A DNA stretch of 64,000 nucleotides from assembly GCA_964016885.1 (NCBI GenBank), contig OZ024743.1, positions 353,896,001-353,960,000 of the forward strand, read 5' to 3'. This document shows positions 15,853 to 28,054 of the stretch, in pieces; positions within the stretch are counted from its first letter, which is position 1; every line of letters starts with the position of its first letter. Position numbers and translations under genes: made by a program. Below the pieces are notes generated by a model. It worked only from the letters and a program-made list of their open reading frames with translations, ran no database searches and was not told the origin of the DNA. Origin of the DNA: Eledone cirrhosa. Taxonomy: Eukaryota.

Positions 15853-17943
15853 GGATCAATTGTTGATTGATAAGGCGATCTTTAAAGATTGTAAAAGGAG
15901 ACACAGAAATCTTACTATGGCTTGGACCGATCACCGCAAGGCTTACGACATGGTGCCACATAGTTGGATAGTAGAATATTTGGAAATGTTTGGTATTACA
16001 GCTAACGTTAGACAGTTACTGGTGAGCAGAATGGATTGATGGAAGACTGAACTGACATCATGTAGAGAGACATTGGGTGTTGTGAAGCTCAAGAGAGGAA
16101 TATTTCAGGGAGAAAGTGTTTCACCTTTGCTGTTTGTACTGTGTATGGTTCCACTTTCATTGGTGTTGAGAAGGTCAATGGCTAATTATGAATGGGGAGG
16201 ACGTGTGTTTAAGATAAGCCACCTGTTGTTCATGGATGACCTAAAATTCTTTGGGAAATCCTATGAACATATTGATTTCCTTAATCAGACAGTTCATATA
16301 TTCAGTACGGACATAGAAATTAGAAATGGAATTTGGCATACTGAAATGTGGGGTGCTATTACTGAAGCGACGTAGAATTAATAAGATAGAAGGAATTGTA
16401 TTAGCAGACGAACAATTTATTAAGGATATTGACGATAACGAGTTTAAGTATTTAAGCATCCTAGAAACAGACCAAATGAAAGAGAAGGAAATGAAAGCGC
16501 TGTTATCAAAGGAATATAAACGGAGACTGAATTTGGTGTTAAAGACAAACTTAAGAGGTAGAAATAAGATACCGGCTATCAACACATAGACTGTTGCAGT
16601 GCTAAGGTATAGTGCTGGTGTGATAGAATGGAGATGTGATGAACTTATGGAGCTTGATAGGAAAACGAAGAAAGCGATGACACTACAAGGGGTTCTACAC
16701 CCCAAAATGACGGGGACAGGTTGTATGTATCACGACAGTGAGGAGGAAGAGGTCTTATCAGCTGTGAAATGTGTGTGAAGTCTGAAGAAAATAATCTGGC
16801 ATGATATGTAAAGAATTCAAAGGGGAAATTGATGGCAGGAGTAAGAAAGATAAAGGTACTAAACAGCAAAGGAAGAGGGAGAATTTAAACAAGACAGACA
16901 GAATGATACATTGAATAGATGGAAAGAGAAAAAGATGTATGGTCAATTCCTGCGTGAAAAGCCTGAGACAGTTGACAAAGATAAAAACTGGAAAGGGACT
17001 AGGAAAGGTGACTTTAAAGGGACTAGGAAAGGTGAAACTGGGGTCCTTATTTTCGCAGACCAGAAACCGGCATTGAGAACAAACTATATAAAGTTCAATA
17101 TTGACAAGTCAGTGAGAAAGGGGAAACAATAAACCACATTATTAGTGAATGTAAGGCGGTGGATTAGCAGTATCGGTAGAGGGTCGGATGCCATGCTTTC
17201 CAGCATAGTTACGTCCCTTTACGGTCTGAGTTCAAATCCCGCCGAGGTTTACTTTGCCTTTCATCCTTACGGGGTCGATAAAATAAAGTACCAGTAATGC
17301 ACTGGGTAATTGCTGGCCTTGTGCCTAAAGTAGAAACAATTATTAGTGAATGTAAGATTCTTGCTCAGAAAGAGTAGAAGTGAAAGCATGACAACATTGC
17401 CAGATTAGTTCATTGGAAGCTTTGTCATATGTATGGCATGAGCAGCAGTGAGAAATGTTATTAGAACCAAACGGAAAGGGTGGCTGAAAATGAACAGTAT
17501 AAGATCTTGTGGGACATCACCATCCAGTGGGATCATTTTATCATGGCTAGAAAGCCTGGCATTGTTGTAGAAAAGAAGAATAACAAGGCAAGTATTGTGA
17601 ATATTGCTTCACTGTGGGACCACAGGGTGAATGTGAAGGAAAGTGAGAAAGTTGAGAAATACCAGCAGCTGAACAGAGAAATAAAAAAAAAAAACTATGG
17701 GGAATCAGACACGTAGAAGTGTTACCGATTGAGATTGGCGCACTGGGAGCAGTTAGTAAAAGGTTTGATGCATAGCTTGTGGAACTAGGAAATACCACCC
17801 TAACGGGAATTTTGCAGTGAGCAGCCTTGCTAGGAACAGCTACGATTCTAATGCCCTTTGGCCATTGGCTATGGCTCGCTCCTTTAGTATAGTGTTGTTA
17901 TAACATCTTCCAGAGCAAAAGTGTTACAAATGATGATAATAAT
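15853..17943 (+). mobile_element. 5'-truncated, decayed R4/Dong-like RLE non-LTR retrotransposon
   Basis: [45 protein letters not shown]...KPGIV, AALLGTA and a short (GAT/AAT) tail. Homologous to 40204-43618. Confidence 0.9.
17156..17338 (+). mobile_element. Nin/Deu-domain tRNA SINE, full-length, with 18-bp TSD
   Basis: TSD attattagtgaatgtaag at 17138-17155 and 17339-17356. B-box gagttcaaatccc. Deu/Nin-like core gcctttcatccttacggggtcgataaaataaagtaccag. Inserted in the R4-like LINE. Confidence 0.95.
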
Positions 17944-18149
17944 GGTTTCAGATTTAGGCACAAGGCCTTTGGGAGAGAAAAGTCGATTAAATCGACCCTA
18001 GTGCATTACCGGTACGTTATTTTATCGACTACGTAAGGATGAAAGGTTAAGATAACCTTGGCGGGATTTGAAACCAGACCGTAGAGGGTCGTAATTCTAT
18101 GTCACGGAGCAGGGTGTCCGACACTCTACCGATGCTGCCAATCTACCGT
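17943..18149 (-). mobile_element. Nin/Deu-domain tRNA SINE
   Basis: Same family, inserted at the AAT-rich tail of the R4-like LINE. Confidence 0.85.
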
Positions 18150-18194
18150 CCTACGGTAGATTGGCAGCATCGGTACGAATGATGATAGTAAGTA

Positions 18195-18395
18195 TGGTTT
18201 CTACTATATGCACAATTCCAACAATTTTTGGAGAAAGAGAAACTCGATTAAATTGATTCCATTGTGTTACTGGTGCTTTATTTTATCAACCCCATAAGGA
18301 TGAAAGGCAAAGTTAACCTCGGCGGGATTTGAACTCAGATCATAAAGGGCAAAGCATGTCGTCCAACGCTCTACCGATACTGCCAATTCACCGCC
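18195..18395 (-). mobile_element. Nin/Deu-domain tRNA SINE
   Basis: Same family (ggatgaaaggcaaagttaacctcggcgggatttgaactcaga). Confidence 0.85.
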
Positions 18396-24517: not shown

Positions 24518-25324
24518 ATACATACATACATACATACATACATACATACATACATACATACATACATACATATACAACCTTGCCACCAGGAAGGTGGCCC
24601 GTCAAAAAAATATACTCGAAATTAAGAGACAGAGATAATACACATACATACACTACACATACATACACTACACATACATTCACACATACATACTTACATA
24701 AATACATTCATACATACACACACACACATAGATACATAAATACATACATACATACACACACACACATACATAATTCATACTTAGATAAATACATACATAC
24801 ATAAATACATACACGTGCATACCCATAGATACATAAATACATACATAGATACATACATACACACATACATAATTCATACTTAGATAAATACATACATACA
24901 TACATAAATACATACACGTGCTTATACATATCTTTTAAGATATTTTTTACACACATTTCATTCGTTATCTCTGTTTTTGTCAAACGCTGTCATCTTTACC
25001 TCATCACTACGCCCTTACATTCCTTTATCCTCACCATAAATATAAGCACATATACACCGGAAGACATTTACACATGAATACGTACCATATATACATACAT
25101 TCATATATATATATTGCGTGGTCAAGTATGAAATTTGTAGAAATTTGTTTTTTTTCTACAAATTTCATACTTGACGGCCCAATACATACGTTCATATTTA
25201 CATATATACATACACGTATATATGTATACATATATATTTATATACACACATGCACTAACTCTCATACATAAAAACACAAAACTGAAATTATTAACTGTTT
25301 ATCGTACGTATTTGCCTTTATTTA

Positions 25325-26270
25325 TGTGTATGTATGTATGTACATACCTATATATGTATGTATGTATGTATGTATGTATGTATGTATGTATGTATGTATG
25401 TATGTATGTATGCAGGCATGTATGTATGCATGTATGTATGTATGTATGTATGTATGCATGTATGTATGTATGTATGTATGTATGTATGTATGCATGTATG
25501 CATGCATGTATGTATGTATGTATGTATGCATGCATGTATGTATGTGTGTATGTGTGTATGTATGTATGCATGTATGCATGTGGTTATGTATGTATATATG
25601 TATGTATGAATGTATGTATGCATGTATGCATGTATGTATATACGTTTGTATGTCTGTGTGTGTGTATGTATACATGTATGAATGTATGTATGAATGTATG
25701 TATGTGTGTTTGTGTGTATGTATGTATACATGTATGTATGTATGTATGTATGTATGTATGTATGTATGTATGTATGTATGTATGAATATATGTGTGTATG
25801 TGTGCATGTACATATGTATGTGGGTATGAATATATGTATGAATAAAGATACGCACACAACCACACACACTCATTATGTGTGTGTGAGTGCGCGCCTGTGT
25901 ATCTGTCAGTGTTTTGTGAAAACAAAATATACATAAATTGCATTCACTCACATACACACACACTTATGTATGTATGTATTATATATATATATATGTTTGC
26001 ATGTATATATATTATATATATAATATATATATATATATATATATATATATATATATGTATCTCTCTCTCTCTCTCTCTCTCTCTCTCTCTCTCGTATCTC
26101 TCTCTCTCTCTCTCTCTCTCTCTATCTATCTCTTTCTCTCTCTCTCTATATATATATACATATATTTAATATACGCATATATGTACATATATATGTATAT
26201 ATGTATATATATATATATATATATATATATATATATATATATATATATATATATATATATATATATATAT
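25325..26270. repeat. (TATG)n, (TA)n and (TC)n microsatellites
   Basis: Directly visible. Confidence 0.9.
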
Positions 26271-28054
26271 AACAGTTGAACAGATCACGTACTTACATAT
26301 ATGTATATATATATATATATGTATATATATATATGTATATATATATATATAAATATATATGTATATATATATATATATATATATATATATATATATATAT
26401 ATAAATATATATGTATATATATATATTTATATATATATATATATATATATAACAGTTGAACAGATCACGTACTTACATACATATACACATACATATACAC
26501 ATACATATATGTATGTATATATCTATCTCTCTCTCTCTCTCTCTATATATATATATATATATATGTGTGTGTGTGTGTATGTGTATATGTATGTAAGTAC
26601 GTGATCTGTTCAGCTGTTCACATGTTACAGCTTACCAGTTAATGCTTCTGCGATGCGATCGAATCACATTTGATTAGCGGTCAAGTCGTAATTTTTATTG
26701 GTCAACACACATAACAAATTTGATGAGATTGAATTTGACAGAGAATTGCAATCTTATATTTCCCTCTTCCACGCTACCTCCGTTTCCCTTCCTGCCCCTC
26801 TATTTCTCACCACCTTCAGCTAGTTCCCTGTCTAGCTCTTTCACTCTTCTTTATCACGTATGCCAGCATATAGCTTTTCTTTTTTTTCTTGTTACATATT
26901 TCTCTCTCTATATATATATTGGTGTGCATTTCTTTCTAATTATTTTGCTTGTAGTCATTCCTTCTTTCCGAATCATTTCTCTGTGAAACATATACAATCT
27001 ATCTATCTATCTATCTATCTATCTATCTATCTATCTATCTATCTATCTATCTATCCATCTATCTATCTACCTGTCTCTCTGACCCCCCCTCTCTATCTAT
27101 CTATCTATTTGTCTGTCTATCCGTCTGTCTCTGTCTATCTATCCCTCTATCTATCTGTCTATCTATATATCTATTGATTTATCTTTCTGTCTGTCTGTCT
27201 CTCTGTTTGTCTGTCTATCTATCTATCTATTTATCTATCTATCCGATTTCTTTTGTAACTCTTCTTGTTTTTAACTCTTCTACATCTACAACTCCTTACC
27301 ATACTTCTCTTCTTAGCTTCACAATTTTTATCCCTCTCCTTATCTCACATCCTGCCATCATCTTCTCCATTCTCCTTCTAATAACGCACACTACACCTCT
27401 TTACCCAACACCCAACACCTATGTGTTGTTACCTTTTAATGATCGCTTTACACAGTTTTATGTGTTCAGCGAGCTTCTGCAATGAACCGTTAAACACACA
27501 AATATTCCGAGAGAGAGAGAGAGAGAGAGAGAGAGAGAGAGAGAGAGAGAGAGAGAGAGAGAGAGAGAGAGAGAGAGAGAGAGAGAGAATGGGGGGGGAG
27601 TGAGAGGAAGGGGATAAGGACAGGGTAAAGATGGCGAGGGAAGGAGTGATATGCAGGGAAACAGATGGTTAGAGTATGAGAAAAGAATATGTCGGAATAT
27701 GGAAGAAGAAAAAGAGGAGGTAAAAGACGGAAGGAAATAAAAAATAAAGAAGAGAAATAATAATAATAATAATAATAATAATAATAATAATAATAATAAT
27801 GATTTCATTTATTGGCCACAAGGGCCGACATATAGGGGACAACACAATAGACAGGGACAGTGGGGGTTTACATAGAGATCGAGTAAGTATAAATAACAAA
27901 AAAAACAAAATAACAATAAAAATACAACAATGAAAGTTCCCCAATAAGAGGGATCACCACCCAGGGTTGACTCAAGCACCCCACCAGTCCTGAGCCACCC
28001 GACGCTCCTAGGGCACCCGGGAAGGGCACCCCTCTCCTTCTCGAATTCACCAGC

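Follow-up and report, generated by a model that had tools for sequence, protein, structure and literature searches.

The window analysed here is a stretch of 64,000 nucleotides (nt) from Eledone cirrhosa (positions 353,896,001–353,960,000 of OZ024743.1; genome of 3.0 Gb), and all coordinates below are window-based. It carries several copies of a short interspersed element (SINE) with a tRNA-like head, and two tandem copies of a Tx1-like long interspersed element (LINE). The lineage to which these LINE copies belong probably drives the SINE, with recognition of a 3' tail that both possess: in the SINE, as in six or more Tx1-like LINE families, the 3' end consists of a 3–4 bp stem around a CTTGT loop, followed by GAAA and ATT. 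The motif, its spacing, its covariation, the target duplication, the strand and the age of the copies were observed directly. Several families probably acted as driver one after another; that of the window, termed family A, is a plausible though unproven current driver, and a rather doubtful one. The copies concerned, with the other SINE copies in the window, are listed below.

17138..17155, plus strand: target duplication, 5' copy, 18 nt, starting ATTATT
17155..17338, plus strand: SINE, short subfamily, with a tRNA-like head bearing A- and B-box-like motifs, a conserved body and the 3' tail; differs by 1.6% from the majority sequence of the copies nearest to it
17314..17338, plus strand: tail of this SINE; stem 17315–17317/17323–17325, loop 17318–17322, 16 nt from loop to end, including GAAA
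17339..17356, plus strand: target duplication, 3' copy
17937..18154, minus strand: SINE, long older subfamily, with an extra body hairpin and a 4-bp tail stem; in antisense where a decayed Dong-like LINE ends in AAT
18194..18397, minus strand: SINE, long subfamily, decayed
11386..11575, minus strand: SINE, short subfamily, with ATTATT (6 nt) on both flanks
20646..20836, minus strand: SINE, short subfamily, with a frame of a PIF1-helicase (Helitron-like) fragment on either side
5295..5473, plus strand: SINE, short subfamily, decayed
43910..44109, plus strand: old SINE copy, tail decayed; 5' boundary approximate
27801..33618, minus strand: full-length Tx1-like LINE copy 1 (family A), both open reading frames (ORFs) open
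27801..27826, minus strand: LINE tail; 4-bp stem 27826–27823/27817–27814, loop 27822–27818, AATAAA at 27813–27808, then GAAA
27756..27800, minus strand: (ATT)15 run at the LINE 3' end
28055..31474, minus strand: ORF2, 1139 amino acids; APE endonuclease, reverse transcriptase and zf-RVT
31504..33408, minus strand: ORF1, 634 amino acids, one CCHC knuckle
33635..39459, minus strand: LINE tandem copy 2, 99.7% identical to copy 1, with a short ATT run between them and a stop in the endonuclease part of ORF2

The three 3' ends quoted in the first-pass annotation of this DNA (SINE, 17311–17344, plus strand; second SINE, 17937–17967, minus strand; LINE, 27795–27830, minus strand) are present as written, and the duplication it had placed at 17138 is a perfect one of 18 nt (17138–17155/17339–17356) around the 17155–17338 copy. 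The ATT-like flanks that it gave for two further copies, 11390–11575 (6 nt) and 20649–20833 (4 nt), also exist, but are too short to serve alone as duplications.

The two LINE copies are 5.8 kb each, with ATT runs on the flanks and between them. ORF2 is open over 1139 amino acids, as had been annotated, and matches Pfam domains PF03372, PF00078 and PF13966. Among solved structures it is nearest to human L1 ORF2p (E-value 3e-57; R2, 3e-22), and Argonauta supplies the sole named protein closely related to that of the LINE. An ORF1 accompanied by an ORF2 with APE, reverse transcriptase and a C-terminal zinc motif, nearest to L1 ORF2p, places the element in the L1/Tx1 group. Its label is kept at "Tx1-like", resting on the likeness to L1 ORF2p and on target specificity, since the tree held only unnamed relatives and no named Tx1 elements (its row Aold_L238 is the wrong element in its locus). 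Sequence-specific insertion of the kind that marks the Tx1 clade was observed: at least 15 nt of ATT precedes all 16 full-length family A copies (range 15–55 nt), and at least 18 nt precedes 11 of the 12 of family B. The LINE families were drawn from the loci of a zf-RVT search and their tandem neighbours, and are 60–95% alike at the ORF2 C-terminus. Families of this group are stacked head to tail in one another's ATT tails (loci L061–L080; window 27756–39477) and often lie antisense inside the AAT tails of Dong-like elements. A sister Tx1-like branch (L307, L310, L315, L316, L321, L323, L325) keeps the hairpin tail but targets (ATCT)n, so that target and RNA signal evolved separately.

The SINE is non-coding, interspersed and of high copy number, with lengths of about 184 nt and about 215 nt in its two subfamilies; its exact tail has at least 182,747 matches genome-wide (control, 0). 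The A- and B-box-like motifs of its head were spotted by eye, against the box consensus, and neither Rfam nor ARAGORN reported a tRNA in the element. It is also present in contigs of three sequencing runs (organisms C, D and E), covering 27–29 of 29 bins, with no tail-stem variants listed in those contigs; no RNA data set was listed among the sequencing runs carrying it, and a metagenome scan gave no match.

Among LINEs, 68 distinct 3' ends fell into 15 clusters, and the six main clusters have a stem of 3–4 bp around CTTGT, followed by AATAAA, GAAA and two bases. The stem variants are paired (GGCC/GGCC, AACC/GGTT, GGCC/GGCT): the two inner pairs are C–G in 64 and 66 of the ends, the third is G–C in 37 and A–T in 23, and the sequence upstream differs. 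An exact 21-nt version of the LINE tail occurs 16,285 times (control, 0); the first 30 loci comprised 26 with ORF2 homology upstream, two short truncated copies, two unassigned and no SINE. For the SINE, a body query without the tail was run on 79 random 10-kb stretches and returned 105 matches, among them tandem units and members of an older family whose tail differs; from these matches 47 ends were parsed. The inner pair is C–G in 43 of these, the second G–C in 40 (C–G in the LINEs), the third G–C in 37, and the fourth T–A in 23 or T–T in 22; the covariation is read from the raw pair tables. In 39 of 47 ends the SINE terminates 16 nt past the loop, the same distance as in LINE families B, C, E and F; in the window family it is 17 nt. 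Against sister families the SINE aligns ungapped with 15–18 of 24 nt identical, two of the mismatches being the flipped pair, and the AATAAA of the LINE tails has been lost. The window LINE had been singled out as the tail partner; the tail belongs instead to the whole lineage, and the best match lies outside the window family.

The similarity was measured against shuffled tails and against a rival set of six LINE families (two CR1-like, three RTE-like and Dong), collected in 790 kb of random sequence and through a small number of searches, one end each. The names CR1, RTE, Dong and Penelope given here to other elements follow characteristic motifs. With end-anchored alignment all seven Tx1-like ends scored above all six rivals for each of three SINE queries, so that the SINE end fits the Tx1-like ends better than any other family sampled, in agreement with the initial proposal. 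The long SINE subfamily, compared with three of the LINE families, gave scores reached by 0–2 of 1500 shuffles, and for the pair originally quoted the end-anchored score was reached by none of 60 (z 2.6). A 28-nt profile built from 13 LINE ends only was scanned over 1.58 million positions of the same random sample. At 8 bits or more it found 30 matches in SINE end zones defined by the body, where 0.2 were expected, and 36 outside them, many being LINE ends or truncated SINE ends; the SINE copies are not independent, and the fair figure is the background rate of about 2e-5 per position. Typical SINE tails scored 8.2, 10.4 and 13.2 bits, in a register matching the terminus. Conversely, a profile trained on the SINE gave 4.9–12.8 bits to LINE ends of the ATT group and -13.0 to 2.3 bits to the six other families; the zero background fractions in its scan are due to the masking of scores above 12 bits. 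The row of the ATCT group on this profile (-6.4) was probably cut one base short, and the same end scored well in the alignment test. The 2.3 bits (6.0 with one deletion) belong to an RTE-BovB-like end, apparently at 13 nt from the terminus. (GAT)n closes the two RTE1-like ends, and AT-rich repeats follow on the end of the BovB-like family and on that of the second CR1-like one. By these comparisons the common 3' sequence stands above chance and above the rival LINEs, marginally so for the single quoted pair. The Dong, the two CR1-like and the three RTE-like families were rejected as drivers, their tails being without a match; an ATT tail as such was rejected as proof of partnership, since a CR1-like family ends in C(ATT)n too.

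Among full-length SINE copies a duplication starting at the SINE end was found in 34 of 44, with a mode of 17 nt, up to 3 nt of which could equally belong to the head; the duplications begin ATTAT, preceded by C or T in 91%. The SINE has young copies: 13 of 31 top-match SINE copies have no substitution from their majority, while 57 copies taken at random diverge by 0–23% (median 9.5%), four of them by 2% or less. Young LINE copies exist as well, 37 of 40 scored family A matches having the same top E-value and 100% identity, and pairwise identity within the LINE families ranging from 100% (family A) down to about 85%. With young copies of both, joint activity over a long time is possible; the driver of the young SINE copies could be family A or B. 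The idea that the window family is too young for the SINE was dropped, given the SINE's copies of zero divergence. The CR1-like and Dong families are young too, however, and timing does not discriminate between candidates. A Tx1-type machine with a preference for ATT had been proposed from the outset; the ATT strand, the long duplication and the zero-divergence young copies are common to SINE and LINE, but the lengths of their target runs are not.

This last difference is the first of several observations that weigh against the partnership as proposed. The ATT run within the duplication measures 6 nt at the median in the SINE and 15.5 nt in the LINEs (p 0.0016; eight truncated LINE copies, duplications having been resolved at 8 of 21 truncated junctions), so that the target logos, a difference in which had been named beforehand as one of the refuting outcomes, differ in degree. 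The longer LINE runs weaken the case and do not break it, given that family C has shorter 3' ATT runs (median 9 nt) and that SINEU-1 and -2 of crocodilians also have a weaker target preference than SINEU-3 (PMC4494074). The quoted pair (short SINE and window LINE, ATT repeats removed) reached a local score equalled by 90 of 1500 shuffles (z 1.8, p about 0.06), so that the claimed similarity is marginal on that pair and becomes strong only with more families; the short SINE did not align significantly with families B and E in local alignment (307 and 592 of 1500 shuffles). The rivals sampled amount to six families with one end apiece. LINE ends were extracted on the condition of a GG before AATAAA, a choice that favours the inner pairs, and the pair tables were built with patterns partly requiring the motif. 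The SINE copies go back to no more than two or three masters. A search for a LINE with the exact, flipped stem of the SINE and AATAAA at that spacing found none, the seven genome matches all being SINE copies. Folding, which had been suggested as a check for a shared stem-loop, gave a divided answer: the hairpin is well predicted in six of seven LINE ends (inner-pair probability about 0.8–0.99; 0 in the seventh), but its pair probability in the full SINE RNA is 0.04 (short) and 0.27 (long), and no tail folds with better energy than its shuffles.

The weak folding predicted for the SINE RNA favours an alternative in which a Tx1-like ORF2 mobilises the SINE through pairing of its AUU end with the target only, a relaxed mode like that of L1 with poly(A), the motif being a captured relic. 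The SINE tail is merely 63–75% like the LINE tail over 24 nt, and the T–T fourth pair extends to the youngest subfamily, as this alternative would have it. Against it, the loop, the stem and the 16-nt spacing are kept in SINE subfamilies up to about 20% diverged and in LINE families 60–95% alike in protein, and the second pair has been altered on both sides. We consider relaxed pairing unlikely.

Less probable still is a driver from an unsampled LINE family (another L1/Tx1 branch, L2, Hero or the I-group) with a relaxed ATTAT target. It would account for the mismatch in target between SINE and LINEs, and the limited extent of the rival set leaves room for it. On the other side, it is Tx1-like ends and SINE ends that score highest with the LINE-end profile in the random sample, the search for a LINE with the SINE-type stem and AATAAA turned up none, and the young SINE copies require a driver that is itself young and abundant.

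A CR1-like family ending in C(ATT)n has the same terminal repeat and strand as the SINE and young copies (98–99%), and CR1/L2 elements are frequent partners of SINEs (PMC3747384, Table 1); were it the driver, the Tx1 likeness of the tail would be chance or history. This is largely refuted and very improbable: its end shows no similarity to the SINE tail (z below 0.5 in all three tests), and a duplication starting with ATT was found in 0 of 24 truncated copies, against 34 of 44 for the SINE (Fisher p 1.7e-10). The young CR1-like family (L111–L130, L273–L302) has a frame of 945 amino acids, and its duplications are absent or very short.

One LINE in the window was tested as a rival driver and rejected.

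40477..43742, plus strand: broken Dong/R4-like LINE with an (AAT)n tail

Although it has the same AAT/ATT microsatellite habitat, and SINE copies often lie inside Dong tails, such a driver is refuted by strand and tail and barely credible: Dong copies have AAT as end and target on the sense strand, opposite to the SINE, which is why the SINE lies antisense in them, and the tail similarity is absent.

Under the preferred reading, mobilisation of the SINE by the Tx1-like lineage through its tail, RNA polymerase III would transcribe the SINE from the tRNA-like head, and ORF2p would bind the hairpin and GAAA, nick the strand opposite Y-ATTAT and prime on the AUU end of the RNA, by analogy with established target-primed reverse transcription; the second strand would then be cut, staggered, about 15–17 nt away. 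The AATAAA lost from the SINE is a signal that a polymerase III RNA would not need. Acceptance of shorter ATT targets might reflect the short AUU end, or an older and less strict driver.

Tx1-driven SINEs have a precedent in SINEU of crocodilians, assigned to Tx1-clade LINEs (Tx1-Mar) through a shared target preference (Kojima 2015, PMC4494074). As here, the preference is weaker in some of the SINE families than in the LINE, and SINEU-1 and -2 show a weaker one than SINEU-3. The evidence for SINEU is target, age and shared U1/U2 heads, and section 16 of that paper cites no shared 3' tail; the window SINE differs in its tRNA-like head, its microsatellite-seed target and the 3' motif as the link. 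A shared tail as the link between a SINE and a Tx1 element was not found in the literature covered, nor was any report of this pair or of another tail-sharing Tx1/SINE pair in animals; Repbase, Dfam, the SINEBase supplements, Ohshima and Okada (1994) and subscription papers lay outside that scope and may name the SINE or its partner. Table 1 of PMC3747384 lists no animal L1/Tx1 pair. The nearest tail-sharing pairs are ZmSINE2/3 with LINE1-1_ZM of maize and SINEX-3_CR with L1-1_CR (Ohshima 2012, PMC3472496; 2013, PMC3747384), in which an L1-clade terminal stem-loop is conserved with compensatory changes and carried by the SINE; their partner LINEs end in poly(A), whereas the window LINEs end in ATT and have another loop. 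The microsatellite-specific Tx1 families Kibi, (TC)n, and Koshi, (TTC)n, as summarised in PMC4494074, also insert into microsatellites with an APE–reverse transcriptase protein; the present lineage targets (ATT)n and its sister group (ATCT)n, and that summary mentions no SINE partner for Kibi or Koshi. UnaL2/UnaSINE and ZfL2 (PMC3747384, Table 1; PMC4176376) likewise have a SINE tail that mimics the LINE 3' stem-loop and is followed by a short repeat. These stringent L2 pairs belong to a different clade, with binding demonstrated experimentally, whereas the stem here is of 3–4 bp and predicted from sequence. The "TX1" of PMC4176376 is the name of a mutant and not the clade.

In the survey by Ohshima (PMC3472496), just three SINEs with L1-clade tails were recorded, in plants and an alga, and it was left open whether strict RNA recognition is ancestral in the L1 group. 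A somewhat less than even case can be made that stringent recognition of a 3' stem-loop by an animal L1-group enzyme has its first example in the octopod Tx1-like LINEs, and that one among the dominant SINEs of this genome spread explosively by capturing their tail; the CUUGU hairpin with GAAA would then be a portable signal, kept in the ATT- and ATCT-targeting branches, for inserting any RNA at ATTAT. If true, a stringent ancestor for animal L1 would be supported, and an intact young element could be used to test the question. A Tx1-like case from an animal, in which the stem varies naturally and young copies are intact, would allow a direct test of ancestral strict recognition. Part of the octopus SINE expansion would likewise gain a named driver: SINEs make up 11.6% of the O. 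vulgaris genome (PMC13282606), and no driver is named in the covered parts of that paper or in the other literature searched.

The Nin/Deu label first given to the SINE is not confirmed, the body appearing to lack that domain, and should be dropped pending a proper alignment. Two core motifs of the Nin domain, as printed in the supplement of PMC4758252, had no match in the window at 3 mismatches, the comparison being confined to these two motifs. By eye only, the SINE body resembles the 3' half of CORE in the consensus sequences of the PMC5804259 supplement. The family may well be one of the octopus SINEs OK, OR1 and OR2 (Ohshima and Okada 1994, cited in PMC4758252 and PMC4824008) or of the "tRNA-Core / tRNA-Deu" SINEs of PMC8967140, which are likewise abundant and tRNA-derived; the consulted parts of PMC4758252, PMC4824008 and PMC8967140 name no partner LINE for them.

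An older SINE family (L159, L181, L166, L189 and others; window 5106–5290) has its head and body in common with the window SINE and a different tail of about 150 nt with CATA repeats at its end, a tail swap. At 18128–18176, where two SINE copies join, the SINE 5' end is perfectly duplicated in inverted orientation, giving a 23-bp hairpin, and locus L192 holds a short tandem array made of the SINE body end and the tail stem. Another repeat (L133, L150, L165) scores 8–12 bits on the LINE-tail profile. Elsewhere in the window are a broken Penelope-like element (7154–10477), the broken PIF1-helicase (Helitron-like) fragment with a SINE copy inside (19745–22322), and a 32-bp satellite of about 438 copies with 80% matches (49761–64000). 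Two repeated matches resembling hammerhead ribozymes (34 bits, E-value 4.5e-5, below the family cut-off) lie on the minus strand at L014:2401–2472 and 2869–2940.

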